The notes below the pieces were generated by a model. The model saw nothing but the letters and a program-made list of their open reading frames with translations. It ran no database searches and was not told where the DNA came from. From Gammaproteobacteria bacterium (lineage in GTDB: Bacteria; Pseudomonadota; Gammaproteobacteria; UBA6429; Thiohalophilaceae), in assembly GCA_043719675.1 (NCBI GenBank), contig JAYSTO010000016.1, forward strand, positions 1-60,914: a stretch of 60,914 nt of DNA, given 5' to 3'. The translations under genes were made by a program, and so were the position numbers. Below, one piece after another: positions 3,707 through 31,950 of the stretch; within the stretch, counting starts at the first letter, position 1, and the number at the start of each line of letters is the position of its first letter.

Positions 3707-3936
3707 GACGCTTATCCACTGCTGTCCCGATGGTGCTGTAGGGAAATCCGCTTTGTAACCTTAGTATCACCGTGCGCATTGGACAAATACAAATTAGCTT
3801 ATCTGTTTATACAAAAGCCAGTAAAAACCGCATTTTTTCCCTGTTCCGTGCGGTAAGGCACTGAGAATTTAGTGTGGAACCGTCATAAAGCTATACTTAA
3901 TAAATTCTACAACATGCCATACACGCAGAGGTAAAT

Positions 3937-4713: not shown

Positions 4714-4870
4714 CAGAACGACTCAGATTCGCTCACGCTCAAAAGCGGATGACTCCGGTTAATTCCCGGTAACAATTCATGTTACGCGACGGGTCGGCTG
4801 CGTTGCGCTTTAACGCGTCGCATTCGACTAAATATCTGACGCCATAATCATAGAATGTTACGATGCCCGA

Positions 4871-5509: not shown

Positions 5510-5524
5510 AGATCGCACTGAGTT

Positions 5525-6214: not shown

Positions 6215-6296
6215 AAGATCTATTCTTGTTTAGGGAAGGCATTGTGAAAATAGTATTTGTGAAGCGACGGCGGAAAGTGCTGTGCTGATATTTCTG

Positions 6297-6854
6297 TTAA
6301 CGTGCAATGGTGCGTTTAACGTGGATATTAACAACAGCGGTGGATTGGATCACTTGGTCGTTTTGATCGACGATACGCGCTTGCAGGGTGTGGCTGCCCC
6401 GTTCCAGATTTTTATAGGTATATTGAGTGTCTTCACTATCCGTCGCTGTACCGTCAAATAAAAATTGCAAGCTATGCCCCGAGTGTAATCCGGGCTGAAT
6501 GGTTAACTGCACGGTAACTTCACTGACATCGACCTGAAGGGTGGTATCGTTGGCGGGCGCAGTGATTTGAAAAGTTGAATAGGAACCCGTGTCCTTCTTT
6601 TTTCGTTCTGGCGTAGCAGGGGTAAATTGCGGCACGGGTTCTGATTGATAGGTTGAACCGGGCGATACGGGGATTTCTTTGGCATCTTTGCTGGGTTGAT
6701 CGGAAAAGATCACTTCGCCGCTGGGGCTGCGGGTCTTATAGACCTTTTTACCGGTATCACCGCTTGTTACGGGTTTTTCCTCTGCCTGCAGGCATAGACT
6801 CAGACATATCAACAACATGACAAGACTGGTGCGAAAAGGAATTTGTCGGTTCAT
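6297..6854 (-). CDS. secreted DUF4124-like protein
   Basis: 185 aa with a signal peptide. The VYKTRSPSGEVIFSDQP segment resembles the DUF4124 N-terminal motif. It lies 95 nt downstream of mshN on the same strand. Confidence 0.5.
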   Translation of the reverse strand: MNRQIPFRTSLVMLLICLSLCLQAEEKPVTSGDTGKKVYKTRSPSGEVIFSDQPSKDAKEIPVSPGSTYQSEPVPQFTPATPERKKKDTGSYSTFQITAPANDTTLQVDVSEVTVQLTIQPGLHSGHSLQFLFDGTATDSEDTQYTYKNLERGSHTLQARIVDQNDQVIQSTAVVNIHVKRTIAR

Positions 6855-6949
6855 CGTTTAATGATTGTGCCTAGAAAACACCAATGAAGTCAATCGAAAG
6901 CGACGGGGACTTTTTGTCCCACCGGTTATACTATTACTCCACGTGCATC

Positions 6950-8053
6950 TTATTCATTGCTCAGGCGCAGATCTTTTAATACTTGAATTCGATTATCCGT
7001 AAACCGTGCGACATCACCGACCAAGCTGCCGGTGGCACGCGCCTGGTTATACGCGGCCTGGGCCTCGGCTTGTTTTCCCAGTGCATCCAGCGAAATGGCC
7101 AGGCCCACCCACCACACCCCGGCATTGGGCTGCACTTTTAATACCTCGGTGTAAGTTTTGACGGCGGCCTGATGGTTGTGTTGCCGTTGATACAATGCCG
7201 CGAGTAAGGCGTGGTGTTCGGGATCACTACTGACCACCGGTGCGAATTTTATCAACACATCCACCGCACGTTGATCCTGATTGAGCTGCATGAGTGTTCG
7301 TGCCTGCAACTTGATGAAGGGCGTGTGATCCGGTGTGACTTGCAAGCCGATGGCCAGTACTTCACTGGCCTCCACCCAGCGGCCACCCTTTATATATAGG
7401 CCAGTCAGCAACTCCCGTAATGTAGTGAGCGTGGGATCACCGATTAAGGCATTACGTAATAGCGTTTCCGCTTCCCGTAACCGGTTTTGACTGACCAAGT
7501 CATAGGCGGATTGATAAGCAATAGCGGCGGATTGTGCAGGCGCAAGTGGCACCGCTTGTTTACTCACGGTGTTGGTTACTGCGGATGTTATCACTTCGTC
7601 ATCAACCACCGGGGCCATGGTTTTTTTCTTTGTCTTGCTGCGGCGTGCTGCCTTGATTGGCTTTTCCTCAACCACAGGTATTGCTGCCGCTTGGGTATTT
7701 TCTGTAATCGGCGTTGAATCAATGATCGGTGTTGTCTGCTGTACCACCGGCGGTGTTACTGAAGATGTAACGGCGGTGATGATCGGTTGCGGTGTGACAA
7801 CGGTTACTGTCGGCGCCGTGGCAATAACGCCTTCTTTTGTTTGATCGCCATGCCGGTACCAGATGAAATAATAACTGGCTGTACTGATAAGCGTCACTGC
7901 CAATACCAGCAGACTAATCATGCCAACAGGTGAACGCTTGCGTACCGCACGCACCGGGACATAACGCACATTTTGCATGATCACCTGTGGTTCGGGTGTA
8001 TCACTTACCTGACGGTGCTCCAGATCTTTTAGCACTTGATTAATTAAGCTCAT
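6950..8053 (-). CDS. mshN: MSHA-type pilus biogenesis TPR protein MshN
   Basis: The ORF 6950-8143 was trimmed to the ATG at 8053 (MSLINQVLKDLEHRQ...). It has one TM helix, a Thr/Pro/Val-rich linker and C-terminal TPR repeats. It follows mshM as in MSHA loci. Confidence 0.75.
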   Translation of the reverse strand: MSLINQVLKDLEHRQVSDTPEPQVIMQNVRYVPVRAVRKRSPVGMISLLVLAVTLISTASYYFIWYRHGDQTKEGVIATAPTVTVVTPQPIITAVTSSVTPPVVQQTTPIIDSTPITENTQAAAIPVVEEKPIKAARRSKTKKKTMAPVVDDEVITSAVTNTVSKQAVPLAPAQSAAIAYQSAYDLVSQNRLREAETLLRNALIGDPTLTTLRELLTGLYIKGGRWVEASEVLAIGLQVTPDHTPFIKLQARTLMQLNQDQRAVDVLIKFAPVVSSDPEHHALLAALYQRQHNHQAAVKTYTEVLKVQPNAGVWWVGLAISLDALGKQAEAQAAYNQARATGSLVGDVARFTDNRIQVLKDLRLSNE

Positions 8054-8061
8054 ACTATTTC

Positions 8062-8970
8062 CTAGTGCCAGCCAAACACACTGAAGCTGGTTACGCCGAC
8101 AACCACGATCACGGTTGCAACCCGGCTGATCCAGCGTCGCCATAACGAATCAGCGGCCGTTGGCAGTTGCGCATCTTCGGTATCTTTAATGGCCATTTGT
8201 AACAAAGGCAACCTGATCTGACGCTGTCCCTGGCCATAGGCAAGCAACATCGACTTGTGACACAAAATATTGATCAAACGGGGAATGCCACGACTGGCCT
8301 TGTAAATCCGATCCAGCGCCTTGTCTTCGAACGGCATGATGCCCTGAAAGCCCGCAATACATAATCGATGAATGATATAGGCATCCATGCCCGCCCGATC
8401 AATCGGCTGCAATTCATAGGAAAAGGTAATGCGTTGTTTTAACTGCCGGACGCTGCGCCGGTTAAGTAACTCATTGAGTTCGGGTTGGCCGAATAACACC
8501 ACGTGTAATAATTTGAATTTCTCTGTTTCCAGATTGGTAAGCAGGCGCAATGATTCAATCGTTTCTTCCGGCATCGCCTGCGCTTCATCAATACACAACA
8601 CCACGCGTTTGCCTTGTTGTGCCAACTCGATCAGGCGATCACTGATGGCCTTTTGCAAACGGTGTACATAGCGACTGACCTTGATCCCCAGTTCTTCCGC
8701 CACCGCCATTTGTAAGCCGTAGGGAGTGAGTTGTGGGTTGTGAATATACACCACCGCAAATTTGTCACCCAGGGTTGCCATTAGCTTGCGGCACAACAGG
8801 GTCTTGCCGGTACCCACTTCACCGCTGACCTTGATAAACCCCTCGCCCGTGCGTAGCGCTATCAATAAGGTATTTAAGGCATCAGTGTAATGTCCATAGG
8901 AAAAAAAATAACTCGTGTCGGGCGACAAGGTAAACGGGATTTCTTTTAGCCCAAAATAATGTTTATACAT
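8062..8970 (-). CDS. mshM: MSHA biogenesis ATPase MshM (ExeA-like AAA+)
   Basis: 302 aa. N-terminus is MYKHYFGLKEIPFTLSPD, the Walker A motif is GEVGTGKT, and the Walker B region is VVLCIDEAQ. Confidence 0.85.
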   Translation of the reverse strand: MYKHYFGLKEIPFTLSPDTSYFFSYGHYTDALNTLLIALRTGEGFIKVSGEVGTGKTLLCRKLMATLGDKFAVVYIHNPQLTPYGLQMAVAEELGIKVSRYVHRLQKAISDRLIELAQQGKRVVLCIDEAQAMPEETIESLRLLTNLETEKFKLLHVVLFGQPELNELLNRRSVRQLKQRITFSYELQPIDRAGMDAYIIHRLCIAGFQGIMPFEDKALDRIYKASRGIPRLINILCHKSMLLAYGQGQRQIRLPLLQMAIKDTEDAQLPTAADSLWRRWISRVATVIVVVGVTSFSVFGWH

Positions 8971-8978
8971 GTTATGGC

Positions 8979-10718
8979 CTATTGCACGACGGTTGTTGTT
9001 TCTTTGCCGACTTGTTTTTTCAGCACCACGTTGTGTAAATGGTCGCGTGTGTTACGTAAACCCTCGGTCCACTGTGCCGCACCCTCGATAACCGTGGGTT
9101 TGAGCAGGATAACTAATTCACTCTTGGTCATCGCCTCTCTGTTATGACGAAACAATGCGCCAATCAGCGGCAGGTCACCCAGAAACGGCACCGAGGCGGT
9201 TTCATTGGATTTTTTGTTTTTCATCAAGCCGCCGATGATCACCACCTGGCCATTTTGCGCACGGATCACGGTATCCGATTCACGTATGGAACTGATCGCC
9301 AGCGGCACGCTGAGCGTGGTGGTTGACGAAACGCTGATAGTCTTAACCTTCTCTGTTACATCTACCACGGTGGGATGGATATGCAAAATAATTTCATTGT
9401 CTTCGCTGATTTGCGGGATGACATCCAATGCGACACCGGAAAAGAAAGGGGTTAATTCGACGTTGTTTTGTGAACTGCTCGTGCCTGTACTGGTATTACT
9501 GCTGGATTCCACGTTCGTGACAAAAAACTCATCGCTGCCGACTTTAATCACCGCCTTTTGATTGTTCATGGTTGAGACTTGCGGGCTGGAAAGTACTTGC
9601 ACATCGCCTTGCGTCTTTAACAGCTCGACAAAGGCGGAAAAGTTTTTATTGATATTTAATGCTGCGGTGAATACCCCGCCAAAGGCAGAGGTAGCGGTCG
9701 AACCAACTTGTGATAAATTGCTGGGATCTAACACGCCGGTGCCACCAACGAGGCTGGTCACACCCGAACCAAACACCGAGCCGCCGCCAACCTGACCGAG
9801 TAGATATTTACTGTTGCCGGTATCTTTTAACGCGCTCCAGTTAATGCCTGCCTGGAATCCATCACTGAGCGTTACTTCCAGTACTTTGGCTTCGAGCAAA
9901 ACCTGTCGTTGCATGACATTTTGCGTACTCTTTAGGTATTCTTCAATCGAACGTAACTCGTCTGGCATGGCGCGCACCACTACAATACCGGATTGCGGAC
10001 TGACCACGACGTTACGCCCCTTATCTTTGCCAATTAACATCGTTAGTGTTGATTGGAGATCCTCCCAGAAATTCGATACGTTATTGGTATTGATGCTGCT
10101 GGCGGCGACGGTATCACGCGGACTGCTGGCACCACTTGAACCTGAGCCTGTGCTACTGCTGCTACCGCCGCGTGCAGTTTGCGTAACCTGACCTGAACTT
10201 ACTGAAATTTTCGAGCTGCCGCTACGCTTGACGTCGATATAATCCACTTTAAAAATCCGCGTGCGCATCACATCGGGATAAACATGGTACGCGGTTTTGG
10301 TTTTTTCAAAATCAAACCCATAGACACTGCGCACGGTTTCCATCACTTCATGTACGGCCACATTTTTTAAATCAAGGGTAATTTTCCCCTTCACCTGTGG
10401 ATGCACCACCATGTTGTACGGCGTACCGTCGACCAGACCCATAAAAAATTGCCGTGCGTCAACTTGGTCAACCTTTAAATCAAAATGCGGTTCGACATTG
10501 ACCTGCGTCGGCAGATTCAAGTTGATCGGTGGCAATAACGCTTCATTGACACTGCTCGGCGGCTTGTTGGTTTGCTGCGCTTGATTACCTTTAATACTGC
10601 TATCCAGCGTTTGTTCAATCAACGCCAGGGTTCGTGTGTCCGGTGGCGCCGGGGTCGAGCACGCTACCAGGACAACGGGTAGCAGTGCGGTGATCCGAAA
10701 TAAATGATGTGTCTGCAT
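8979..10718 (-). CDS. mshL: MSHA-type pilus secretin lipoprotein MshL
   Basis: 579 aa with lipobox LVAC and a Ser/Gly-rich linker. The C-terminal secretin domain reads ...VIKVGSDEFFV... and ...VPFLGDLPLIGALFR. Confidence 0.85.
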   Translation of the reverse strand: MQTHHLFRITALLPVVLVACSTPAPPDTRTLALIEQTLDSSIKGNQAQQTNKPPSSVNEALLPPINLNLPTQVNVEPHFDLKVDQVDARQFFMGLVDGTPYNMVVHPQVKGKITLDLKNVAVHEVMETVRSVYGFDFEKTKTAYHVYPDVMRTRIFKVDYIDVKRSGSSKISVSSGQVTQTARGGSSSSTGSGSSGASSPRDTVAASSINTNNVSNFWEDLQSTLTMLIGKDKGRNVVVSPQSGIVVVRAMPDELRSIEEYLKSTQNVMQRQVLLEAKVLEVTLSDGFQAGINWSALKDTGNSKYLLGQVGGGSVFGSGVTSLVGGTGVLDPSNLSQVGSTATSAFGGVFTAALNINKNFSAFVELLKTQGDVQVLSSPQVSTMNNQKAVIKVGSDEFFVTNVESSSNTSTGTSSSQNNVELTPFFSGVALDVIPQISEDNEIILHIHPTVVDVTEKVKTISVSSTTTLSVPLAISSIRESDTVIRAQNGQVVIIGGLMKNKKSNETASVPFLGDLPLIGALFRHNREAMTKSELVILLKPTVIEGAAQWTEGLRNTRDHLHNVVLKKQVGKETTTVVQ

Positions 10719-19857: not shown

Positions 19858-20034
19858 CTTATGACCTTCAGCGTGATACCAGCTGCAAACGCCGCCTTTC
19901 CGTAATTTCGCGTGCATTTGACGCATAAAAGAAAAATTTCAATTCGTCACTTTGTTAGGGATTTATTTTATTCTAAATAGTACGCACCGAAGATTGCCTG
20001 GCCATTCAAGTCCTTGCCATGCAATAATCCGCCG

Positions 20035-20850
20035 ATGGGGCAACGCAACAGTATTTACTATTACTTAGTTCGCTATTTCAACTCACTTGGCCGGTTAGAC
20101 GGTAAGGTGGTGGTGGATATTCCTGCGGGCCATGGGCAGATGAGCAGCCCGTTGCAGCAGCAAGGGGCAATCATCAAGGCCCTGGATTTATACCCGGAAA
20201 AGATCCAGGGTGAGGGCATCGAAAAAATCTACGCGGACATGAATCACCGCCTGCCATTGGCGGATGAGTCAGTGGATTTTGTTTTGTGCCTGGAGGGTAT
20301 AGAACATATCCACAATCAATACGGCCTGCTCATGGAACTCAATCGTATCCTCAAAACCGGTGGTAGCCTGATCTTAACCGCACCGAGCCTGTCACATATC
20401 CGCGCGCGGCTATCGACCTTTTTAGTGGAAAGCGAATATTGGAAACGCATGCCGGCCTCGGAAGTCGACAGTGTCTGGTTTTCTGAAACAGAGTCGTCAC
20501 GTATCTACTTTGGTCATATTTATTTAATCAACGCCAGTCATTTGCGTACCTTAACCGCGTTGAGCGGTTTTTCCATCCAGCAACGCTTATGGACCAATCT
20601 CAGCACAAGCTCCATCGTACTATCCGTGTTGTTTTATCCGCTGATTGTGTTGGTGTCGTTTTTCGCTTTGTTCGATTCCTGGCGCAAACACCGAACTGAT
20701 ATGAATGCAGCAAAACGCCGCATTTATTGGGAACAACTGCGTATTAATATTTCACCCGTGACGTTGTTCTGCAAAGATATCTTCTGGGTATTAACCAAAC
20801 AACGCAGCATTCATGAAACCATCGATTATTTACGGCAAATGCAGCGCTAA
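20035..20850 (+). CDS. class I SAM-dependent methyltransferase with C-terminal hydrophobic helix
   Basis: The ORF starting at TTG 20014 was trimmed to the first ATG at 20035. Motif I is VVVDIPAGHGQMS, the post-I acidic residue is in IKALDL, and a TM-like segment IVLSVLFYPLIVLVSFFALF lies near the C-terminus. Confidence 0.65.
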   Translation: MGQRNSIYYYLVRYFNSLGRLDGKVVVDIPAGHGQMSSPLQQQGAIIKALDLYPEKIQGEGIEKIYADMNHRLPLADESVDFVLCLEGIEHIHNQYGLLMELNRILKTGGSLILTAPSLSHIRARLSTFLVESEYWKRMPASEVDSVWFSETESSRIYFGHIYLINASHLRTLTALSGFSIQQRLWTNLSTSSIVLSVLFYPLIVLVSFFALFDSWRKHRTDMNAAKRRIYWEQLRINISPVTLFCKDIFWVLTKQRSIHETIDYLRQMQR

Positions 20851-21391: not shown

Positions 21392-21763
21392 GCGTAACTC
21401 CGATTGATACAAATTCTTAACCATGGGGTTATTATGCCAAACTCCTGGAAGAAAAAGGTGAACTACGTTAGCAATGCCCCCTGTGAGTCGCAACCACATG
21501 TCAAAATCATGGAAGAACACCATTAATGACCACATTGCACCGACTACTGGGAATCGGGTAGTTATACACAAAATTTACCCAGTGGGGCCCTATTTATCAG
21601 CTACCAGCATTTGTGGCACCCATCACAGTATTGACAGATACGATTAACTTCTAATAATGGAGATACTTAAGGCAGTAACGGGGAGCCCCGCTTCGCCATA
21701 GGTTAAGTAAAATACCCATTACAAGAAACGATATCCCGCCCACAACCAGCAGTGGAAAATACC

Positions 21764-22732
21764 ATGGCCATCTTGAATGATACGGTTTCACATAAAAAAA
21801 GGTTTCTTGCCAGCCTAATCAAGGCCCCCTTTGATCAATTAGCGCAGACCTGCGGTAGCGTCTGGTCATCCGCCGATGAGGTAACCCAGAGCCTACAGCA
21901 TCAGCTCTGCAAGCTCCCGCATTGCCAGCTCCTCTATGCCATTGATAAGACCGGCAAACAACTCAGCGCCAATATCACACGTAATCAGGTTGACAACAGC
22001 TGGCGGGGCCAAGACCTGTCAGCGCGTCCCTACCTCAAAGGTAATCTACCCTACCAGGGCCTGATCCTGTCCCCGGCCTATTTGAGCCAACGCAGCATGC
22101 AACCGTGTATCACCGCCATGCAGGCGGTGCGTCATGCAGATCAGCTCGTGGGATTTATCGCTGCCGATTTTCACCTCAAAGACCTGCCTGTGATGAGCTC
22201 ACCCGCCTTGCGGCGGGCACAGCTACTATCCAATGGGCCTGCTGGCCATGGCAGACCCGGCCGGATCATTAGCAGTGTTGACGATAATATAGATTATTTG
22301 ACCTACGTCTTAATTACCTTGATGCAAGAACACGGGGTTTTTCAGGCACAGATTCATTTCACTAGTGCCCGCTGTGTTTTGTGGTCGATCGATAACCCGT
22401 TTCACTACCAGCTGCACACCGTTGAAGAGTTGATGATGCCTGAATTGTTCATACAGTACCCTGAACAGACCTATATTCAGCAAGCCAACACCGGCCAGGA
22501 AAACATTCCCTTGGTCATGGCGCAGATCAAGGCCTTACGCGAAGGCAATGATACAAATTACCTACGATCCGCCTCCTTGAATATTATTAATAACCTCGTC
22601 AGCCTGACCTTTGTCAGTGACGGCACACAATACATCGCCGCCGGGGAATTTCTCAATCGCGAATTACCTTATTGGCTTGGCAAGCCCGTTCACGCTAACA
22701 TAGAACCTACCGCTTCTCTGCACAAAAACTAA
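21764..22732 (+). CDS. stand-alone PDC/Cache-like sensor-fold protein, no output domain
   Basis: ~322 aa from ATG 21764 (GTG 21752 is also possible). The segment ARPYLKG...LILSPAYLSQRSMQPCITAMQAVRHADQLVGFIAADFHLKDL follows the Cache/PDC pattern (Y-x-S..T.....T...PV....G.L.GV...D..L..L). No signal peptide, TM helix or transmitter domain is visible. Confidence 0.5.
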   Translation: MAILNDTVSHKKRFLASLIKAPFDQLAQTCGSVWSSADEVTQSLQHQLCKLPHCQLLYAIDKTGKQLSANITRNQVDNSWRGQDLSARPYLKGNLPYQGLILSPAYLSQRSMQPCITAMQAVRHADQLVGFIAADFHLKDLPVMSSPALRRAQLLSNGPAGHGRPGRIISSVDDNIDYLTYVLITLMQEHGVFQAQIHFTSARCVLWSIDNPFHYQLHTVEELMMPELFIQYPEQTYIQQANTGQENIPLVMAQIKALREGNDTNYLRSASLNIINNLVSLTFVSDGTQYIAAGEFLNRELPYWLGKPVHANIEPTASLHKN

Positions 22733-22752: not shown

Positions 22753-23958
22753 ATGTTGTTTGAATCACAACCTGCAAATATTTCATTGATCAAGATTTTT
22801 TTCTCCGTTACTGCATTGTTGTTATGCCAGCCACTGCTGGCAGCAAACCCGTCCGCAACTACGACGCCACCACCCAAACAAACCCCCGTAACCACATTGC
22901 CCGTTACACCGGTAAATCCTGCGGCTGCACCGGCAAAACCACTCAATACCAATCAGGAGTTGGCAAAAAAAATATGGTTACTGACCAATGGCGACATGAC
23001 CATCACTCATATTAAAGCAGGACTTGGTGGCGGTGAAAGCCAGATGTCGCTATCCATCGACAAGAGCATGGCAGAGAAAATTATCGCTGTGCTCAACCAG
23101 GCCTTTGATCCGGTACCCGAACAAATTCAGGGCTACGTTGCGGAGAAAGGCAACACGGAACAACTTACCGCCATCATCAAATGGCTGGAATCCTTTTATG
23201 GCAAGAAGGTGCGCGAGGCCGAAGCCAAGATGCAAATCCAATACAACGAGCTGGAGCGTACCGTCCCCTTGAAGGAACCAAAATTTTCCAAGGAACGCGA
23301 AGCCCTTTATAAACGCTATGAGCGGATTGCCCTGGAAGCCAACACTAAATTCATTGCCGAGACCGTTGAGTTTTATACGGTGATCAATAACAGCACCAAA
23401 CCACCCACGGAACGTATCGCCCCCAAACAATTAGAGCAAACACTTAAGCTCAACCAGGTTAAAATGCAGAGCCTGACGCAACAATTGTTGCCGCATTTAT
23501 TTGCCTCCACCTATCGCGACCTGATCGTCGACGAGTTAAAAGTGTATATCGATTTTCTGGAGACCCCTGCCGGACAAAGTTATCTGCAACTCACCACGGA
23601 TGCCTACGTCCACGCCTTGCGCAAGACCCGGCCCGAAGTATTGCTCAAACTGGCCGGTATCTTTGAGGATGAGCTTGCCATTTTATCACCCTATTCCAAA
23701 GAAGCGCTGTCTGAAGCAAAACAACAGCAGCTGCTAGTCACGATGATGAAACGTTTTGGGAAACACGCATTGATCGGCGCCATTCTGGAGGTGCGCGGCG
23801 GGCAGATCACCATCTTGCGCAATAACCAGGAGCAAGAGGTCTTCGGTCGCCCCAATCAGGACTTCATCACGGTAAATACCTTGATGAAAGACATGCATAA
23901 AGCGAAGCTTGATATCCGGCGTTATTACCAGCTGGTGCAAAAGCATGCCCGCCAGTAA
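22753..23958 (+). CDS. secreted hypothetical protein with Pro/Thr-rich linker and helical C-terminal region
   Basis: 401 aa with a signal peptide (..LLCQPLLAA), then NPSATTTPPPKQTPVTTLPVTPVNPAAAPAKP, then helical domains. It starts 21 nt after the preceding gene. Confidence 0.6.
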   Translation: MLFESQPANISLIKIFFSVTALLLCQPLLAANPSATTTPPPKQTPVTTLPVTPVNPAAAPAKPLNTNQELAKKIWLLTNGDMTITHIKAGLGGGESQMSLSIDKSMAEKIIAVLNQAFDPVPEQIQGYVAEKGNTEQLTAIIKWLESFYGKKVREAEAKMQIQYNELERTVPLKEPKFSKEREALYKRYERIALEANTKFIAETVEFYTVINNSTKPPTERIAPKQLEQTLKLNQVKMQSLTQQLLPHLFASTYRDLIVDELKVYIDFLETPAGQSYLQLTTDAYVHALRKTRPEVLLKLAGIFEDELAILSPYSKEALSEAKQQQLLVTMMKRFGKHALIGAILEVRGGQITILRNNQEQEVFGRPNQDFITVNTLMKDMHKAKLDIRRYYQLVQKHARQ

Positions 23959-24071: not shown

Positions 24072-24170
24072 ATGCGCTATTTGTTGCTTGCGTGTTTTTT
24101 ACTAACAGGGGCCTTTGCCTTCGCAATGAAAGAGCGGGGGCATGCGACTCATCATCATAAAACAAGCTGA
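24072..24170 (+). CDS. candidate 32-aa small ORF (signal-peptide-like, His-rich tail)
   Basis: Below the ORF-track size cut-off. The sequence AAAGGGGAACGTTT-ATG is followed by MRYLLLACFLLTGAFAFAMKERGHATHHHKTS*. The stop lies 8 nt before the start of the next gene. Confidence 0.3.
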   Translation: MRYLLLACFLLTGAFAFAMKERGHATHHHKTS

Positions 24171-24178
24171 CCACACCC

Positions 24179-24787
24179 ATGCCCAGCATTTACCAGATTA
24201 AGCCTGCTTTCCAAAATCTGTTGCGCCCACTCACGCGCAAATTGGCAGCGATGGGCGTCACGGCAAATCAAATTACTAATCTTGCGTTGCTGTTATCCAT
24301 CTTGACCGGACTGGCTGTCGCATATTGGTCAACAACCATCACGATATTTTTTCTGGTGCCCGTAGTTATGCTTGTACGCATGGGGCTCAATGCTATTGAT
24401 GGTATGCTGGCGCGTGAACATAACATGAAGACCGCGTTGGGTGCCTTCCTTAACGAGTTGAGTGACGTCATCTCAGATGCGGCGCTGTATCTGCCGTTTG
24501 CGTTGGTTATCCAGATTAATCCGGCATTAGTGGTGGCCGTGGTGATCGCCGCGATTATCAGTGAAATGGCCGGTGTCGTGGCCGTGCAGGTGGGTGCATC
24601 ACGTCGTTATGACGGCCCCATGGGCAAAAGTGATCGGGCCTTCGTGTTTGGCGCAATTGCATTGGCCCTTGGTCTGGAGCTGCCATTGGGAGATGGATTG
24701 AATATCTTGTTGATCGGCATACTGCTATTACTGGTGTTGACCACGATCAACCGTGTGTTATCTGCATTGCAAGAGGTGAAACCATGA
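24179..24787 (+). CDS. CDP-alcohol phosphatidyltransferase-family protein with variant catalytic motif
   Basis: 202 aa and polytopic. The motif region NAIDGMLAR-EHNMKTAL-GAFLNELSD aligns to the canonical DxxDGxxAR-x8-GxxxDxxxD, but the first and third Asp positions are Asn. Confidence 0.8.
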   Translation: MPSIYQIKPAFQNLLRPLTRKLAAMGVTANQITNLALLLSILTGLAVAYWSTTITIFFLVPVVMLVRMGLNAIDGMLAREHNMKTALGAFLNELSDVISDAALYLPFALVIQINPALVVAVVIAAIISEMAGVVAVQVGASRRYDGPMGKSDRAFVFGAIALALGLELPLGDGLNILLIGILLLLVLTTINRVLSALQEVKP

Positions 24788-25725
24788 TCGCGCTACATTT
24801 GCCCGCCAGTGTTCAGATAGCGTTACTCGGGATGTTTGGGTTGTTATTAGTTGCAACGCTCTTTGTCGGTGGCCTGGCTCACTTGCGCCCCGAACGCAAC
24901 TACACCGAACTCACCTTGCGGGTCAAAACCTGGTGGTTGATCGTCGGCGTATTTACCGCCGCCATTGTCGTTAACCACACCGTATCAGTCATCGTCTTGG
25001 CCTTTGTCAGCTTCCTCGCCTTCAAGGAATATTTATCGTTAATCCCCACTCGGCGCACAGATCACCGGGTGCTGCTCTGGGCCTATATCGCCATTCCCTT
25101 TCAATATTATTGGGTGGCGATCGGCTGGTATGGCCTGTTCATTATTTTCATCCCGGTGTATGCCTTTTTATTTCTGCCGATGCGCATGGTGATGATTGGC
25201 GAGACGCAAGGATTTTTACGTGCGGCAGGCACCCTGCACTGGGGATTAATGACCACGGTATTCAGCCTGAGCCACATGGCTTATTTATTGGCCTTGCCGG
25301 ATGCAAAAAATCCAGCCGGCGGTAGTGTCGGCCTGCTGTTATTCCTGGTGTTTCTGACGGAGATCAACGATGTCGCGCAATACATCTGGGGTAAATCCTT
25401 CGGCAAACATAAAGTAACGCCGACCGTCAGCCCGAACAAAACCATGGAAGGACTCCTCGGCGGCGTGCTGACGACAACAGCACTGGCGGTGTTATTAGCC
25501 CCTTGGCTCACCCCTTTAACACCATGGCAATCCGTTGCGGCCGGTGCATTAATCGGTATTGCGGGCTTTGTCGGCGATGTCACCATCTCGGCGGTGAAAC
25601 GTGACATCGGCGTGAAAGACAGCGGCAGTATTTTGCCTGGGCATGGTGGTATCCTGGATCGATTAGACAGTCTTACCTACACCGCACCGTTGTTTTTCCA
25701 CTTTATCTATTTCCTGCATTATTAA
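24784..25725 (+). CDS. phosphatidate cytidylyltransferase (CdsA family)
   Basis: 313 aa and polytopic. It carries the CdsA signature SAVKRDIGVKDSGSILPGHGGILDRLDS. An ATGA overlap links it to the upstream gene. Confidence 0.85.
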   Translation: MIALHLPASVQIALLGMFGLLLVATLFVGGLAHLRPERNYTELTLRVKTWWLIVGVFTAAIVVNHTVSVIVLAFVSFLAFKEYLSLIPTRRTDHRVLLWAYIAIPFQYYWVAIGWYGLFIIFIPVYAFLFLPMRMVMIGETQGFLRAAGTLHWGLMTTVFSLSHMAYLLALPDAKNPAGGSVGLLLFLVFLTEINDVAQYIWGKSFGKHKVTPTVSPNKTMEGLLGGVLTTTALAVLLAPWLTPLTPWQSVAAGALIGIAGFVGDVTISAVKRDIGVKDSGSILPGHGGILDRLDSLTYTAPLFFHFIYFLHY

Positions 25726-25728
25726 CCC

Positions 25729-26400
25729 ATGTTACGCCTGCTGTTTTTTCTTATCATTATTAAACCGCTGGCGATACTGGTGCTGGGCCTGAACATCCGC
25801 CGACACGAGTTGTTACCGGCCAGCGGTCCGGCTATTGTGGTGGCAAACCACAATAGCCACCTGGATACACTGGTATTAATGTCGCTATTTCCGTTACAGT
25901 TGATCGCCAAGGTACACCCGGTGGCAGCGGCGGATTATTTTCTGCGAAACCGCTGGCTGAGTTGGTTTGCCCGCAACGTGATCGGTATCATTCCCTTGGA
26001 GCGTAAACCCAGCGCAAAAGGCGCACAGGTGTTAGCCCCCGTTACTGAGGCGCTTGCCCGCGGGGATATACTGATTTTATTTCCTGAAGGTTCCCGTGGT
26101 GAGCCGGAAAAAATGAGCAAATTCAAGAACGGCATTGCGCATCTGCTCAGCGAACAAACTACGGTCGCGGTAACGCCGGTGTTTTTTTACGGTTTGGGAA
26201 AATCCCTGCCCAAGGGGGAATTATTCTTGGTGCCATTTTTTGTTGACGTGTTTGTCGGCGAGCCTTTAGCTTGGAACGGCGCACGCCAGGCATTCATGGA
26301 GGCGTTAGAATCCAGCATGCAACAGTTACAGCACCAAGCGCAGATCGCCACACGGCATGCGCAAGAATCACCCCCTCAGGCACAACCGAATAAGGAATGA
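25729..26400 (+). CDS. lysophospholipid acyltransferase (PlsC/AGPAT family)
   Basis: 223 aa with the HX4D motif NHNSHLD and block III FPEGSRG. It starts 3 nt after the upstream stop. Confidence 0.85.
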   Translation: MLRLLFFLIIIKPLAILVLGLNIRRHELLPASGPAIVVANHNSHLDTLVLMSLFPLQLIAKVHPVAAADYFLRNRWLSWFARNVIGIIPLERKPSAKGAQVLAPVTEALARGDILILFPEGSRGEPEKMSKFKNGIAHLLSEQTTVAVTPVFFYGLGKSLPKGELFLVPFFVDVFVGEPLAWNGARQAFMEALESSMQQLQHQAQIATRHAQESPPQAQPNKE

Positions 26401-28157
26401 CACCCATGAGAACCACAAAAGAATGCACATTTTCCAGCTGGGATGGCACCGCGTTGTTTTACCGCGCCTGGCTCGCTGATAAGCCGACTGATAAAGCCAT
26501 CATTTTGTTTCATCGCGGCCATGAACATTCCGGGCGTTGGCAGGACGTGGTAGATAAACTTAATTTGCCGGACTTTTCACTGTTTGCCTGGGATGCACGC
26601 GGTCATGGCCTTTCCCCTGGTGAACGTGGTTATGCGGAGAACTTCGGCGTGTTGTTGCAGGACGTCGATGCCTTCGTTCATTTCATCTCAGTCGAATACA
26701 AGATACCTATGGAAAATATTGTTGTGCTGGCACACAGCGTTGGTAGTGTATTAGCCAGCACCTGGGTGCATGACTACGCGCCACCGATCCGTGCGCTGGT
26801 GCTTGGCAGTCCTGCGTTGCGCGTGCGTTTGTATTTACCGTTCGCAATTCCGCTATTGCGCCTGTTGCTGAAAGTAAAACCGGTGTCCTTCGTACAGAGT
26901 TATGTGAAGGCTAAATTGTTGACGCATGATCCTGTTAAGATTGCCTCCTACACAGCTGATAAACTGATTACCCGCGCCATCGCGGTGAATATCCTGATCG
27001 GCCTGTATGATGCAGGCACGCGCCTGATGCGGGATGCCGGGGCGATTCAAACGCCAACCCTGATGTTGGTCTCCGGCGCGGATTGGGTCGTGAAACAATC
27101 AGCGCAACGACAATTCTTTAAGGGCCTATCTTCACCGCGCAAAGAAATGCATGTGTTCCCGGGGTTTTTCCACGACACCTTCAACGAAAAAGACAATCAT
27201 TTACCGATTGGCAAGGCCCGGGAATTTATCCTGCGTGAGTTTGTGCAGCCGACCGCAATACCCTTTCTCCTCAACGCACACCAGGTTGGCTACACAAAAA
27301 ACGAGTATGATTGCTTGCTTAAACCGCTTAGCTTGTTTTCACCCAGCGGACTGGTCTTTGCCCTATCCCGATTGATGTTAAAGACCGTGGGTAAACTCAG
27401 TCATGGTATACGCATCGGTCATGCCACCGGCTTCGACTCCGGCACGATGTTGGATTACGTGTATCGTAACCAGGCAGAAGGGTGGGCGCTGCTCGGTAAG
27501 ATGATTGATCGGAATTACCTCGACAGCATTGGCTGGAAGGGCATTCGTCTGCGTAAACAAAACCTGCAAAAAATGCTCAAACAGACCATCGAACAGGTAC
27601 ATGCTGAGGGCAAACCATTGCAGTTACTCGATATTGCCACCGGCCACGGACGTTATGTATTGGATACGTTACGTCAGATGCCTGCTTACCCGGTGTGCGC
27701 GTTATTGCGGGATTATAGCCCGCTGAATATCGAATCGGGTATGGCATTGGCGACACAAATGGGCTTGACCAATGTCACTTATGAACAAGGCGATGCCTTT
27801 GATAAAAAATCATTGGCACAGATCAAACCAACGCCCTCCATTGTCATTGTCTCAGGCTTGTATGAATTGTTCCCGGGCAACGAAATGATAAGTACATCCC
27901 TGCAAGGACTTGCCGCTGGCATGGCCGATGACGGCTATCTCATTTATACCAATCAACCGTGGCATCCGCAGGTAGTATTGATTGCGCGGACGCTGACCAG
28001 TCACCGTAATGGACAGCCATGGGTCATGCGTCGCCGTACCCAAGCGGAGATGGATCAATTAGTTGCCGCCGCCGGATTTGAAAAAATGGCAATGGCGATT
28101 GACGAGTACGGTATTTTTTCTGTGTCCATTGCCCGTAAGACCGCACACCGGCACTGA
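26397..28157 (+). CDS. fusion protein: N-terminal alpha/beta-hydrolase (lysophospholipase/monoacylglycerol-lipase-like) + C-terminal class I SAM methyltransferase
   Basis: 586 aa. The N-terminal half has HRGHEHSGRW and the nucleophile elbow AHSVGS. The C-terminal half has motif I LLDIATGHGRYVLD and motif II VIVSGLYELF. An ATGA overlap links it to the upstream gene. Confidence 0.8.
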   Translation: MTPMRTTKECTFSSWDGTALFYRAWLADKPTDKAIILFHRGHEHSGRWQDVVDKLNLPDFSLFAWDARGHGLSPGERGYAENFGVLLQDVDAFVHFISVEYKIPMENIVVLAHSVGSVLASTWVHDYAPPIRALVLGSPALRVRLYLPFAIPLLRLLLKVKPVSFVQSYVKAKLLTHDPVKIASYTADKLITRAIAVNILIGLYDAGTRLMRDAGAIQTPTLMLVSGADWVVKQSAQRQFFKGLSSPRKEMHVFPGFFHDTFNEKDNHLPIGKAREFILREFVQPTAIPFLLNAHQVGYTKNEYDCLLKPLSLFSPSGLVFALSRLMLKTVGKLSHGIRIGHATGFDSGTMLDYVYRNQAEGWALLGKMIDRNYLDSIGWKGIRLRKQNLQKMLKQTIEQVHAEGKPLQLLDIATGHGRYVLDTLRQMPAYPVCALLRDYSPLNIESGMALATQMGLTNVTYEQGDAFDKKSLAQIKPTPSIVIVSGLYELFPGNEMISTSLQGLAAGMADDGYLIYTNQPWHPQVVLIARTLTSHRNGQPWVMRRRTQAEMDQLVAAAGFEKMAMAIDEYGIFSVSIARKTAHRH

Positions 28158-28316
28158 GCCCGGCAGCGGCATCCGCGGCAGATGAAGACCGCCTTCATCA
28201 TCCCAGCTGCGTCCATTTCCCGTTATATTTGCCATTAAATTGCAAACTGCTCACATGACAACCAATTCAAAAAGGCCTAACATTGCCCCATAATTGCTAC
28301 ATGAAGGAATAAACCC

Positions 28317-28847
28317 ATGTTAATCAAATCTCCACTGCCTGTTATCCTGGCTACAGTATCCGCCCTGTGCATCACTGTATTCATCAGCGGTTGCTCGGAT
28401 TCCGCATCGGCCGATGCAAAACACGCGGAATACAGACTGCCTAACAGTGATATTCGCCTTACCATTACAATCCAGTCTGGTGAAAAGGAACGAATCGTCC
28501 GCGCTACCGACGGTGATCAAGAACTATTTAAAACTAAGCTCGACAAAAACCCAGAGGGCAAAACCCGCGCACGATTATACAAAAATAAAGAAAGTTATAC
28601 CCTGGTTGACGGCAATGGCGAACGCTATTTATTAAATATGCGCGAAAAACGTTTTGAGAAAAGTGCGGACGACAAAAACGCGGCAGGCGCCACCTATGTT
28701 GGAAAATTTGATTTTGATAAAAAACACAACTGGCGTTTTATCCCCAGCAAACAAATTGCGAAGGCTGATGACACGCCACCTACTGCCACCTCCAGTTCGT
28801 CTTCAGAAAAGGGGCGGTTTGGCCCGCCATCAAAACAATTTCGATAG
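28317..28847 (+). CDS. hypothetical lipoprotein
   Basis: 176 aa with lipobox ISGC and a Lys-rich mature part. No family was recognised. Confidence 0.55.
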   Translation: MLIKSPLPVILATVSALCITVFISGCSDSASADAKHAEYRLPNSDIRLTITIQSGEKERIVRATDGDQELFKTKLDKNPEGKTRARLYKNKESYTLVDGNGERYLLNMREKRFEKSADDKNAAGATYVGKFDFDKKHNWRFIPSKQIAKADDTPPTATSSSSSEKGRFGPPSKQFR

Positions 28848-29159: not shown

Positions 29160-31151
29160 TTATTCTGCAATCTCGATTCGATTTCGCCCATTTTCCTTTG
29201 CCTTATATAGACTCTGATCGGCGCGTTCAAACAGAGTCTCGATCGCTTCTTCATCACGATAATATGTCAAACCGGCAGATACGGTAATAACTACGCGTTT
29301 ATCCTGAAAATGAAATGGCGTTTGTTCTATTATGCCACGCAGTTTTTCTGCCACTGTTTTACCAACAGCGATATCCGCTTCCGGCAGTAATAACACAAAT
29401 TCTTCGCCGCCATATCGTGCCACAAAATCAGTTTGTCGAATATGTTCACTGAGTACCTCACCTATAACCTTCAGTACTCGATCACCTGCAGCATGACCAT
29501 AGGTGTCATTAATTGTTTTGAATTTGTCGACATCAAATACAGCCAACCCCAACGTTGATTTGTAGCGTCGGCAACGGGCAATTTCCATGGCAATCCGTTC
29601 TTCGTACGCCTTGCGATTCGGCAATCCCGTCAAAGTATCTTGCATGGCTTCTTGTTGCGTCTGCTCCAGCCGTTGCTGCAACTGCGCACCACCCTTTTCA
29701 AGCGCATGCACTTTTTCAGTTAACTGCACAATCAACGCCTGGGCCTGCTCATGCCGTTGTTGCTCGGTGTCACGAAACGTTTTGACGCGGTTATCAATCA
29801 TATCCAGGCGTGTCACTATCGTCTGCTTTACCTGTATCAGCTCGGTCATGTCTTGCATCGATTTTTTGATGTAATCAATCTCACCATGCACATCAGACTC
29901 CATAGCAACCACATGCTGCTGCGTTTCTTCGTGCCGCCTGCCAGTCTGCCGCAAATCTGCATCGATCTCCTCCAATCGTAAATTGAGTTGTGAAAAAAAA
30001 CTCTCCAACTCATTGCGCTGCACGGTAAGACGACTACAAATCTCTGCAACCACATCCGCCAAAGCGTGCAAACAGTGCACGAGGCCATCGACTTTTCCTG
30101 ATTGTTCAGAAAACAGTTTTTCAATCTGGCTGACACTGGCTTGTAAATCCTTGGGTGGACTGAGGTGTGTGATAAATGCCTTAACCGCTTCGACAATCTC
30201 ATTCAGTGAGTTTGCATCCAGCATCACCGGCAAAGGTTCTGTTGAATTATAGGCTGACTCGATATTCTGGGCGATAACTTCGATTATCGGTAATAAATCC
30301 TTGCGACGTCGCGCCTTATTGATGTGACTTTTCAGTGTACGGAAATTAATGCGCCGTTTGACATTATCGGGCAAGCGCAACGCAAGCTGTAATAACAGAT
30401 CACCCACGGCAGGGGCAATGGTTTTGGGAGAATCGTTAAGATTGCTATCGGCACCCTCAACCGCTGGCATCCTCGATACCGGCGGTACAATAAGTTCGGC
30501 AGATTTTTTCTCTTCCACTATAGGTGGCTCAGTCTTTACGCCCAGCAATTCCTTGTCTTGCGACTGTTGTTCGCGTTTTGCAAAAATCCGTTCAAGAAAT
30601 TTGCTGCGCCGTTCGCCCTTGGCCTCAGCGGTGGGATTTAATGGCGGCTCAGCCTGGGGTGATGTTTGCTTCTGCTCGAATTCAATCACTTGCTTAAACA
30701 AATTGGCAACTTGCTCAATTACCCCGTTCACCTCAGCAAACTCTTCCAATTCATTCAGTTGTTTGTCGATATCTTTGGCATTACGGCTAAGCGCGGCTGG
30801 AATGCTTACTTGTTTCAACAACGCCTGTAGGATGCGCGCCGGACTTTTTAATGCCTGGCGATTACTGCGGATTTGATCTAATTCGCCGATTTGCACGCTA
30901 ATGGTTTCAATCAGTGTGCGCAGCTTAACGATATCTTTGCCGTCGCGAACTGCATTGCGTAATTCGGCGAGTGACTGGCTTAATGGCGGATGACGTGCAT
31001 CCGCTGCTAAGGTAAGGCGTGCGACAAGATGACGCAATAGTCGTTCGATCTCACGCCAGGATTTTTCCTTGAGCTCCAGCTCGCCAAGCGTTTCGAAATA
31101 ACGCGTCTTCCAGCGTGCCTGTGGATCGAGGCTATCTTTGTCTGTTGCCAT
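29160..31151 (-). CDS. diguanylate cyclase with long coiled-coil N-terminal region (DgcP-like architecture)
   Basis: 663 aa. The C-terminal GGDEF domain has RYGGEEF and an RxxD I-site-like motif upstream. About 480 aa of helical/coiled-coil sequence precede it, with no TM helix or recognisable sensor. Confidence 0.85.
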   Translation of the reverse strand: MATDKDSLDPQARWKTRYFETLGELELKEKSWREIERLLRHLVARLTLAADARHPPLSQSLAELRNAVRDGKDIVKLRTLIETISVQIGELDQIRSNRQALKSPARILQALLKQVSIPAALSRNAKDIDKQLNELEEFAEVNGVIEQVANLFKQVIEFEQKQTSPQAEPPLNPTAEAKGERRSKFLERIFAKREQQSQDKELLGVKTEPPIVEEKKSAELIVPPVSRMPAVEGADSNLNDSPKTIAPAVGDLLLQLALRLPDNVKRRINFRTLKSHINKARRRKDLLPIIEVIAQNIESAYNSTEPLPVMLDANSLNEIVEAVKAFITHLSPPKDLQASVSQIEKLFSEQSGKVDGLVHCLHALADVVAEICSRLTVQRNELESFFSQLNLRLEEIDADLRQTGRRHEETQQHVVAMESDVHGEIDYIKKSMQDMTELIQVKQTIVTRLDMIDNRVKTFRDTEQQRHEQAQALIVQLTEKVHALEKGGAQLQQRLEQTQQEAMQDTLTGLPNRKAYEERIAMEIARCRRYKSTLGLAVFDVDKFKTINDTYGHAAGDRVLKVIGEVLSEHIRQTDFVARYGGEEFVLLLPEADIAVGKTVAEKLRGIIEQTPFHFQDKRVVITVSAGLTYYRDEEAIETLFERADQSLYKAKENGRNRIEIAE

Positions 31152-31176: not shown

Positions 31177-31950
31177 TCACGCGGCCAGGCGCGACATGTT
31201 CAATCCCTCTGGCAAACCCAGCTCCATCATGATCGGCAGATGATCCGAATAAGCATGATTCAGCGCCGTTACATTTAACACTTTAAATTCGGGCGTAACA
31301 AGGATATGGTCGATATTGTGCGTAGGACGCCAACTGGGGAAGGTCAGCGTTTCTTCTAATGGCTCATGTAAGCGGGTTCGATTAAATAGCATGCACATTT
31401 CTTTACTATCCGGCTTGCAATTCAGGTCCCCCATCAAAATAACATGCCGGTAGTCACTAATGCGCTCACCGATATACGCTAGTTGACGCATACGCGCCCG
31501 CGTACTCAGCGATAAATGCACGATAACCAGGGCAAGTGCGTGCTCGCCGCCGCCATACACCGACAATATCGCATTGCGTCCCGGAATCAATGTTGGCAAC
31601 GATAAATCTTCGACGTGGTTGGGGTGATAGCGGCTCAACAAACCGTTACTGTGTTTCGCAATCCGGCCGAAGTTACGGTTGACCTGGTGGTACCAATAGG
31701 GAAACTCCGCCTTTAATGCCAGGTATTCCACCAGATTAATGTTATTACTGCGAATACTGCCCGCGTCCACTTCCTGCAAGCCGACAAAATCGCACATGGC
31801 CAATACCTTCGCCACCTTGTCCAGATTGGTAAGGCGTTGCGGATGCGGCAACAGATGTTTCCAACTGTGAATGACATACTGGTGGGGACTGCGGGTATGA
31901 ATCCCGACCTGGATGTTATAACTCATGACCCGTAAATGTTGTCCGCTCAT
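31177..31950 (-). CDS. endonuclease/exonuclease/phosphatase (EEP) family protein
   Basis: 257 aa. Has LRVMSYNIQ at the N-terminus, LQEVD, and C-terminal SDHLP, which are EEP-fold catalytic motifs. Confidence 0.8.
   Translation of the reverse strand: MSGQHLRVMSYNIQVGIHTRSPHQYVIHSWKHLLPHPQRLTNLDKVAKVLAMCDFVGLQEVDAGSIRSNNINLVEYLALKAEFPYWYHQVNRNFGRIAKHSNGLLSRYHPNHVEDLSLPTLIPGRNAILSVYGGGEHALALVIVHLSLSTRARMRQLAYIGERISDYRHVILMGDLNCKPDSKEMCMLFNRTRLHEPLEETLTFPSWRPTHNIDHILVTPEFKVLNVTALNHAYSDHLPIMMELGLPEGLNMSRLAA

Follow-up and report, generated by a model that had tools for sequence, protein, structure and literature searches.

Which lipid is made, and for what need, by four tightly packed genes whose products resemble enzymes of phospholipid metabolism? 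The question is raised by positions 24179 to 28157 of a 60,914-nucleotide stretch of gammaproteobacterial DNA (contig JAYSTO010000016.1 of assembly GCA_043719675.1), the whole of which is here termed the window. An initial annotation, made from the letters alone, had treated these genes as an orphan module, a gene set without a known pathway. Actually the set is a conserved one, ynbA-ynbB-(plsC)-ynbC, and corresponds to the cluster that in Pseudomonas aeruginosa bears the name arc1, for which genetics and partial biochemistry have been published. The locus is a further member of a known, named and biochemically unsolved cluster, and not a new kind of system. That it is the four-gene (A-B-PlsC-C) version of the ynb/arc1-type cluster we take as very nearly certain. 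As to what the cluster does, the answer to which we lean, as probable though well short of assured, is a dedicated, CDP-diacylglycerol-dependent route (CDP, cytidine diphosphate) to a specialised lipid that would serve to maintain or defend the membrane.

Relationship to ynbABCD and arc1

The Escherichia coli K-12 chromosome carries ynbA-ynbB-ynbC-ynbD (b1408-b1411), and three of the window proteins are full-length homologues of YnbA, YnbB and YnbC at 48-50% identity. The open reading frames of all four window genes are exactly as the initial annotation gave them, on the forward strand and closely packed. The first product (202 amino acids (aa), 24179-24787; PF01066, 34.8 bits against a cut-off of 22) is a CDP-alcohol phosphatidyltransferase-like membrane protein of the YnbA/PA2541 family, 49% identical to K-12 YnbA over 196 aa (E 7e-51). 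The second (313 aa, 24784-25725; PF01148, CTP_transf_1, 229 bits) is a YnbB-type paralogue of CDP-diacylglycerol synthase. It is 48% identical to K-12 YnbB over 304 aa (263 bits), with the N-terminal half that is specific to YnbB included, whereas its match to K-12 CdsA is at 34% and extends over the C-terminal 198 aa only (101 bits). The fourth (586 aa, 26397-28157; PF12146 and PF12147) matches E. coli YnbC at 48% identity along 581 aa, the copy compared being that of record NZ_CP141085.1 and not that of K-12. Also common to the window and E. coli are the A-B order with its stop/start overlap and the same Asn/Asn-Glu motif in YnbA, which in E. coli reads LNALDGMLARE...LGAILNETGD. The window differs from the K-12 arrangement in having a gene for a PlsC/LPLAT-family acyltransferase (223 aa, 25729-26400; PF01553, 80 bits) between B and C, and in the lack of a YnbD phosphatase gene within 60 kb. 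The order ynbA-ynbB-plsC-ynbC, exactly as in the window, is found in a second E. coli copy, on an IncF plasmid, and in a tblastn search with the fourth protein against annotated plasmid records there were full-length matches at 48-54% identity, annotated as 'bifunctional alpha/beta hydrolase/class I SAM-dependent methyltransferase' (SAM, S-adenosylmethionine), with ynbC as the gene name in E. coli.

The IncF copy is at 3839-7761 of the IncFIA/IncFIC conjugative plasmid pFHI_NMBU_11_02 (locus L012) and is additional to the ynbABCD of the chromosome. Its ynbA frame diverges past about residue 160, and this may be a frameshift. Plasmids of Enterobacter and Citrobacter, and a further one of E. coli, have similar copies of the module (H20-H23).

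Is arc1 then the same kind of cluster? It was Ting et al. (eLife 2022, PMC8926400) who named PA2541-PA2536 'antagonism resistance cluster 1' (arc1), and homology was examined by searching genome and metagenome collections for their published PAO1 deletion primers. Within species-representative genomes, a 23-mer over the PA2536 deletion junction had no match, having probably overshot the junction, and an 18-mer within PA2540 yielded ten chance matches only, in unrelated taxa. The PA2541_F1 20-mer was found at three metagenome loci with 68% G+C, where other PA2541 primers are also present. The genes 3′ of it encode, in order, a 211-aa YnbA-type protein, a 586-aa fusion protein and a YnbD-like phosphatase. 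The 211-aa protein starts with MIS and ends with GQA, as the primers predict, and is 56% identical to the window transferase over 203 aa (E 4e-61), with the motif LNAVDGMLARE...LGAYLNELTD; the PA2540-type protein is 52% identical to the window fusion protein over 585 aa. Since the loci with the PA2541 primers encode YnbA, YnbC and YnbD-like proteins in that order, arc1 is, going by sequence, a ynb-type cluster, and the window locus is its orthologue. Direct comparison with the P. aeruginosa-type proteins covered PA2541, PA2540 and part of PA2539, with PA2537 and PA2536 being compared by description; these are likewise an acyltransferase and a CDP-diacylglycerol synthase, and four of the six arc1 families are represented in the window. 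There are differences. The six arc1 genes are in the order A-C-D-small protein-PlsC-B, against A-B-PlsC-C for the four here, and in the window neither a small PA2538-type gene nor a YnbD gene was found, the latter by tblastn with E. coli, Shinella and Burkholderia queries (best E 0.06).

An altered active site in the transferase

The motif of the YnbA-type protein is N71-A-I-D74-G-M-L-A-R-x8-G88-A-F-L-N92-E93-L-S-D96 and, extended to a further aspartate as N71-x2-D74-G-x2-A-R-x8-G88-x3-N92-E93-x2-D96-x3-D100, it is encoded by 24389-24478. Where canonical CDP-alcohol phosphotransferases have four aspartates, D1 to D4, the second and fourth are kept here and the first and third are asparagine, in a protein whose Pfam domain scores above threshold. 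This placing of N71 on D1 and N92 on D3, which the initial annotation had proposed, is borne out by HMMER alignments, ungapped through the motif, to four solved enzymes: Mycobacterium tuberculosis PgsA1 (6h5a), AF2299 (4o6m), the Renibacterium phosphatidylinositol-phosphate (PIP) synthase fusion (5d92) and Staphylococcus aureus PgsA (7drj). Because the spacing DG-x2-AR-x8-G-x3-N-x3-D is fixed, there is no alternative register for the two residues.

A suggestion that the Asn/Asn variant is special to this locus has to be given up. When 1.84 billion cluster representatives were searched exhaustively with phmmer, 232 clusters matched at E ≤ 1e-30, and in an alignment of the best 150 of the 232 representatives together with the query (n=151) the full N-D-N-E-D-D set is present in 139 of 151, the window protein having all six (N71, D74, N92, E93, D96, D100). 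Taken singly, the counts are 145 for N71, 146 for D74, 145 for N92, 149 for E93 and 147 for each of D96 and D100. Other residues that are near-invariant in the family are R67, E129, R142, G146-P147, K150 and R153. In M. tuberculosis PgsA1, D68, D71 and D89 hold Mg-1 and D89 and D93 hold Mg-2; D93 has been proposed as the catalytic base, binding of inositol-phosphate depends on R94, and A90 lines the acceptor pocket (PMC6506517). Aligned to it, the YnbA family has Asn in place of D68 and of D89, Glu without variation in place of A90 and, in place of R94, a hydrophobic residue (Val or Ile; V97 in the window protein). The altered residues are kept in step with the rest of the set in those 139 of 151 sequences, which argues for a working, altered catalytic site; the pattern is that of an active site constrained and apparently re-engineered, not decayed. 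At metal 1 such a site would be short of two negative charges; close to the acceptor it would have gained a carboxylate; and it would be without a phosphate clamp of the PIP-synthase type. No description of the Asn-Asn-Glu signature, or of the absence of the inositol-phosphate Arg, was found in the literature searched.

Might YnbA instead be a catalytically dead pseudo-enzyme, retained as a scaffold or as a regulator of YnbB? The two aspartates that have been replaced, D1 and D3, are both ligands of Mg-1 in M. tuberculosis PgsA1. However, the replacements are themselves near-invariant, and D2, D4 and the DG..AR..G framework are equally well kept. Asparagine, too, can ligate Mg, by its carbonyl oxygen. 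PA2541 was, moreover, the strongest arc1 hit in a transposon screen. A pseudo-enzyme is unlikely, and we would put little on it.

Which known enzymes come closest? An AlphaFold (AF2) model of the YnbA-type protein (predicted local distance difference test, pLDDT, 89) has PIP synthases as its nearest solved folds (template modelling score, TM, 0.72-0.78), then AF2299, with PgsA at only 0.51. Among NCBIfam families those for PIP synthase and archaetidylinositol-phosphate (AIP) synthase score best, yet at 78 bits against a cut-off of 180 and at 49 against 170, and the PgsA equivalog scores 21.6 bits against 109. With the PIP synthases, i.e., M. tuberculosis PgsA1, the Renibacterium enzyme and archaeal AIP synthase, YnbA has in common the six-helix CDP-alcohol phosphotransferase architecture and the motif spacing. 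It departs from them in the asparagines at D1 and D3, in the invariant Glu in place of the Ala after D3, and in the Val or Ile in place of the inositol-phosphate Arg after D4.

The YnbB-type and PlsC-type proteins

In the second protein the CdsA signature is intact (S269-x-V-K-R...PGHGGILDRLD), and the acyltransferase has H41-x4-D46 and FPEGSRG; every motif that the initial annotation had quoted is in the sequence. The YnbB-type protein scores 109 bits against a cut-off of 385 for the CdsA equivalog. The PlsC-type protein scores 65 bits against 103 for the equivalog of acylglycerolphosphate (AGP) acyltransferase; its best NCBIfam matches are the Aas-type domain for transfer from acyl carrier protein (acyl-ACP:lysophospholipid acyltransferase) and AGP_acyltrn, which are equally good and both under their cut-offs. 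The position of plsC is the same in the E. coli IncF plasmid copy and in a copy from Pseudanabaena.

Could these nevertheless be the organism's sole plsC, cdsA and pgsA, doing ordinary housekeeping? Within the 60-kb window there are no paralogues of the four genes, and so no second plsC-, cdsA- or pgsA-type copies, the rest of the genome being out of view. Against this, all three proteins fall far under the equivalog cut-offs; the orthologous ynb and arc1 genes are non-essential, E. coli and P. aeruginosa each having the core genes besides; an enzyme of the YnbB type is no substitute for CdsA; and the cluster is also found on plasmids. A housekeeping role is thus unlikely in the extreme, and the earlier proposal that the locus stands apart from the housekeeping plsC, cdsA and pgsA is upheld by those scores, by the closeness to YnbB over CdsA, and by the coexistence of orthologues with core genes.

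YnbB is the only cluster member with published biochemistry. The E. coli protein makes CDP-diacylglycerol in vitro, though it does not complement a cdsA knockout even when over-produced. Its over-production raises the level of the glycolipid MPIase, and it has been described as dedicated to MPIase and not to phospholipids. In E. coli ynbB and cdsA are both induced in the cold, and the ynbA promoter is activated by BglJ-RcsB; on the function of ynbA the literature offered transcriptome mentions only. The second window gene being YnbB-type, i.e., of the type that acts at the CdsA/YnbB step of MPIase biosynthesis in E. coli, is it a diacylglycerol-pyrophosphate-linked glycolipid anchor that the cluster builds, like compound I of MPIase (N-acetylglucosamine-pyrophosphate-diacylglycerol, GlcNAc-PP-DAG)? 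YnbA would then move the phosphatidyl group from YnbB-made CDP-diacylglycerol onto the phosphate of a sugar-1-phosphate, with the two asparagines as an adaptation to an anionic phosphate nucleophile. Besides the effect of YnbB on MPIase, the translational coupling of ynbA to ynbB, here as in E. coli, fits such a scheme, as does the GT2 glycosyltransferase gene that adjoins ynbA in Caballeronia; and the basic loop R142...K150-S-D-R153, invariant in the family, could bind a phosphorylated acceptor. However, publications assign the formation of compound I to CdsA and YnbB themselves, with no mention of YnbA. MPIase is essential and ynbB is dispensable, its deletion leaving the level of MPIase unchanged, and most clusters have no glycosyltransferase neighbour. 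The scheme would also leave the YnbD phosphatase, the lipase-like hydrolase and the methyltransferase unexplained. No reported link of MPIase to YnbA, YnbC, YnbD or a PlsC-type gene was found, nor, in the literature on MPIase consulted for E. coli YnbB and CdsA, any MPIase outside E. coli. A glycolipid anchor of this sort seems to us rather improbable.

The YnbC hydrolase-methyltransferase fusion

The fourth protein has an N-terminal alpha/beta hydrolase domain resembling monoacylglycerol lipases and lysophospholipases (26484-27194; PF12146, Hydrolase_4, 223 bits) and a C-terminal class I SAM methyltransferase domain (27219-28139; PF12147, Methyltransf_20, 446 bits). The hydrolase domain can be aligned over about 240 residues with monoacylglycerol lipases of bacteria and of humans (6qe2, E 2e-22; also 9rhw), and it has a weak match to lysophospholipase L2. 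In the alignments to 6qe2 and 9rhw, S114 (in A-H-S-V-G) falls in the nucleophile motif, and D229 and H259 at the Asp and His, positions which in those lipases we take to be the catalytic triad. While alike in alignment and in the positions of Ser, Asp and His, YnbC differs from monoacylglycerol lipases and lysophospholipase L2 (PldB) in being fused to a PF12147 methyltransferase and in having A-H-S-V-G rather than G-x-S-x-G as its nucleophile motif.

In the methyltransferase domain the SAM motifs D412-I-A-T-G-H-G, D439 and D466 are present, and its AF2 model has a pLDDT of 93. What does it methylate? Sequence and profile searches of solved structures matched the lipase-like part only, with no relative of the methyltransferase domain. 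The fold neighbours of that domain are generic small-molecule O- and C-methyltransferases with TM ≤ 0.6, which does not narrow down the substrate, and no literature on PF12147/Methyltransf_20 was found.

Linkage across bacteria and loss of ynbC

How general is the association of these genes? The cluster is widespread, being known from E. coli, P. aeruginosa, Burkholderia, rhizobia, cyanobacteria and relatives of methanotrophs, and on replicons of Fusobacterium and Moraxella YnbA and YnbC matches are side by side. Among plasmid-collection records with full-length YnbC, 29 of 30 also have YnbA, with the genes adjacent. The linkage recurs, with its order shuffled, in Alpha-, Beta- and Gammaproteobacteria, in Cyanobacteria and in metagenome contigs. 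In Shinella YnbA is divergent from YnbC-YnbD-small protein-PlsC-CdsA, a set of six whose order is that of PA2541 to PA2536; in Burkholderia ambifaria CdsA-PlsC is divergent from YnbA-YnbC-YnbD-small protein; in Caballeronia CdsA-PlsC is divergent from YnbA with its GT2 gene; and Pseudanabaena has YnbA-CdsA-PlsC followed by a methyltransferase only. A search begun from homologues of the methyltransferase domain led to the same company: in all three of the long contigs examined CDP-OH_P_transf, Acyltransferase and CTP_transf_1 genes adjoin, and one of the three also has a DSPc phosphatase.

Some YnbA representatives are apparent fusions, of YnbA with YnbC in P0134 (807 aa) and of YnbA with YnbB or PlsC in P0199 (452 aa) and P0201 (436 aa). 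They could be real or they could be artefacts of gene calling; if real, they would support physical cooperation of the enzymes.

Does the Asn/Asn variant always go with the hydrolase-methyltransferase fusion, a point that the initial annotation had proposed to check? It does not. The nearest relative (GCA_046717105.1; YnbA 96% identical) has all four genes. The next (L017, a contig from a JGI metagenome; YnbA 88% identical, same flanking genes) has ynbA-ynbB-plsC only. With blastn two short pieces of ynbC are detectable in it, one corresponding to window 27138-27183 at 87% identity and the other to the 3′ end, and these remnants in the gap mean that ynbC was deleted there. Methylovulum too has three genes only, and the fusion gene is absent beside the cluster both there and in a Caballeronia replicon. 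Judged by these comparisons, the stable core of the cluster is YnbA, YnbB and PlsC, with YnbC, YnbD and the small protein being probable accessories, and the relative with the deletion is a natural YnbC-minus comparison.

The remnants are in L017 10217-10330, which is syntenic with window 26400-28230, and consist of the KEMHVFPGFFHD region and the 3′ end of ynbC; directly after them there is a GC-rich inverted repeat, GGGCGGGTT...AACCCGCCC. A different kind of irregularity is seen in another locus (L029, ENA contig_19715), where the cluster acyltransferase at 8254-10302 is called as 682 aa, about three times the usual length, and may be fused to another domain, perhaps a phosphatase. There the YnbC hydrolase domain is split over two genes.

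Defence, and what the pathway might make

What need does the cluster serve? Here the evidence is from arc1. It is induced by Gac/Rsm and silent without active Gac/Rsm; of its six genes, five have the look of phospholipid metabolism, with the core phospholipid genes being elsewhere in the genome; and its mutants fare badly when Burkholderia thailandensis attacks them by type VI secretion (PMC8926400). A 2025 study by CRISPR interference (CRISPRi) came upon arc1 again, and found that arc1A mutants withstand the lipase effectors TseL and Tle1 less well (PMC12663445). Gac/Rsm control and a defence phenotype are known from the genetics of P. aeruginosa alone; the window locus is known from its genes only, and no obvious GGA-type RsmA box is present upstream of its ynbA start codon.

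Does the lipid need to be special at all? The cluster might be a stress-induced second route to ordinary phosphatidylglycerol, with which the membrane is refilled after phospholipase damage, the steps being those of PlsC, CdsA, a YnbA resembling PgsA and a YnbD resembling PgpB/PTPMT1. Much the same pathway was drawn by the discoverers of arc1, who placed four arc1 products on the phosphatidylglycerol pathway (PMC8926400), and the sensitivity of arc1A mutants to lipase effectors is in keeping with it, as are the resemblance of the PlsC-like protein to Aas-type lysophospholipid acyltransferases and the kinship of the hydrolase domain with lysophospholipases and monoacylglycerol lipases. However, the PgsA equivalog score of YnbA is far too low and its fold nearer to PIP synthases than to PgsA, as detailed above; YnbB is unable to support bulk phospholipid synthesis; and plain phosphatidylglycerol as product is hard to square with a strictly conserved altered site and a conserved methyltransferase. 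We judge this route to be about as improbable as the glycolipid anchor.

On the favoured reading, a dedicated route to a specialised lipid, the steps may be sketched as follows. The PlsC-like enzyme, on the evidence of its motifs, would acylate a lyso-lipid to give phosphatidate, which the YnbB-type enzyme would convert with CTP (cytidine triphosphate) into a private pool of CDP-diacylglycerol, a reaction known in vitro for E. coli YnbB and here suggested by 48% full-length identity. The YnbA-type enzyme would then move the phosphatidyl group to an acceptor by way of a modified metal site, predicted to have lost two of the three metal-1 carboxylates of the canonical enzymes (D1 and D3 being Asn) and to have gained an invariant Glu beside the acceptor pocket. 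In fuller clusters the PAP2/dual-specificity phosphatase YnbD, whose gene is absent from the window, would take off a phosphate. Finally the YnbC hydrolase and SAM methyltransferase, as an optional step, might trim or methylate the product, or clear lyso-lipids. By orthology the role would be membrane maintenance or defence under envelope damage, e.g., phospholipase attack, and not bulk phospholipid synthesis.

Several considerations weigh against this. Not one member of the cluster has yet been tied to a lipid product, and on that score the earlier statement that the product is unknown still stands for ynb and arc1 as a whole. All that is proposed here for the acceptor of YnbA, for the substrates of the hydrolase and the methyltransferase, and for the catalytic competence and metal binding of the YnbA site is inferred. 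The defence phenotype comes by analogy from the six-gene cluster of a distant gammaproteobacterium and may not transfer to a methanotroph-like organism, and in E. coli deletion of ynbB alone has little phenotype. Since the window has neither a YnbD nor a PA2538-type gene, the pathway here may be truncated, or it may be completed by genes elsewhere. Any canonical cdsA, pgsA and plsC elsewhere would also lie beyond the 60 kb by which this genome is seen.

A bolder possibility goes further than a specialised lipid of some known type: the YnbA family would perform chemistry not seen with any characterised CDP-alcohol phosphotransferase, and the product would be an undescribed class of membrane lipid made on demand for envelope defence. 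The Asn-Asn-Glu site would be what enables the chemistry, one option being that the phosphatidyl group goes to a phosphate, or to some other nucleophile out of the ordinary, so that the head group would be pyrophosphate-linked or new in another way, and the methyltransferase and phosphatase would tailor the product. We hold this to be doubtful, while giving it more weight than either the anchor or the refill route. If true, it would mean an undescribed lipid class spanning enterobacteria, methanotrophs and cyanobacteria.

Why does one more member of the cluster matter? The cluster clearly affects fitness in P. aeruginosa, but its lipid product has still to be found. What is added here is the family-wide Asn-Asn-Glu signature together with the missing inositol-phosphate Arg, evidence from the sequences that ynb and arc1 are clusters of one kind, and a definition of its core and accessory genes. 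The motif, the missing Arg and the YnbA/YnbB/PlsC core offer guidance on the choice of proteins for reconstitution, of residues for mutation and of acceptors to be ruled out. The question of the product is no more testable from this window than from E. coli or P. aeruginosa.

Gene junctions and neighbouring genes

How are the four genes joined? The junctions ATGA, 3-nucleotide (nt) gap and ATGA of the initial annotation can all be read in the sequence: ynbA and ynbB overlap by ATGA at 24784-24787, ynbB and plsC are joined as TAA-ccc-ATG, and plsC and ynbC overlap by ATGA at 26397-26400. Only the last is in some doubt. There is an in-frame alternative start for ynbC, the ATG at 26406 with an AAGGA box about 9 nt before it, and in the nearest relative the ynbC orthologue is called three residues shorter (583 aa); on these grounds the plsC/ynbC junction may be a 5-nt gap instead of an overlap. 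In a promoter scan promoter-like sites were rarer than in shuffled sequence, and a terminator scan gave nothing convincing downstream of ynbC.

Upstream, at 24073-24171 (+), is a possible leader reading frame of 32 aa, MRYLLLACFLLTGAFAFAMKERGHATHHHKTS, whose membership of the cluster is uncertain. A strong GGGGA ribosome-binding box precedes its ATG, and it ends 7 nt upstream of the ATG of ynbA, itself without a Shine-Dalgarno sequence. It could be a coupling or leader open reading frame. Only L022, a relative at 94% identity, has kept it, and it is not conserved in L017, L023 or L020; as a conserved leader peptide it found no support beyond the nearest relative, and that candidate was set aside.

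The flanking genes are ordinary chromosomal ones (secretin, ccmF/ccmH, glnA, diguanylate cyclases), and the closest named homologues are from Methylococcaceae. Four conserved neighbours without an informative domain match, all syntenic in relatives, are at 20014-20850, 21752-22732, 22753-23958 and 28317-28847, all on the forward strand. The three upstream ones encode a class I methyltransferase whose tail is hydrophobic and two proteins of 326 and 401 aa, the longer of which has a Pro/Thr-rich N-terminus, and the downstream neighbour of the cluster encodes a 176-aa lipoprotein-like protein. Further downstream, on the reverse strand, are genes for a 663-aa diguanylate cyclase with a long coiled-coil N-terminus (29160-31151; GGDEF and DGCcoil) and for a 257-aa protein of the endonuclease/exonuclease/phosphatase family (31177-31950), both of which are syntenic in relatives with or without ynbC. 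The B. ambifaria cluster also adjoins a diguanylate cyclase fragment, and bcsB. Among the window open reading frames scanned there is a second diguanylate cyclase, a globin-coupled one (Protoglobin and GGDEF), at 48287-49369 on the forward strand.

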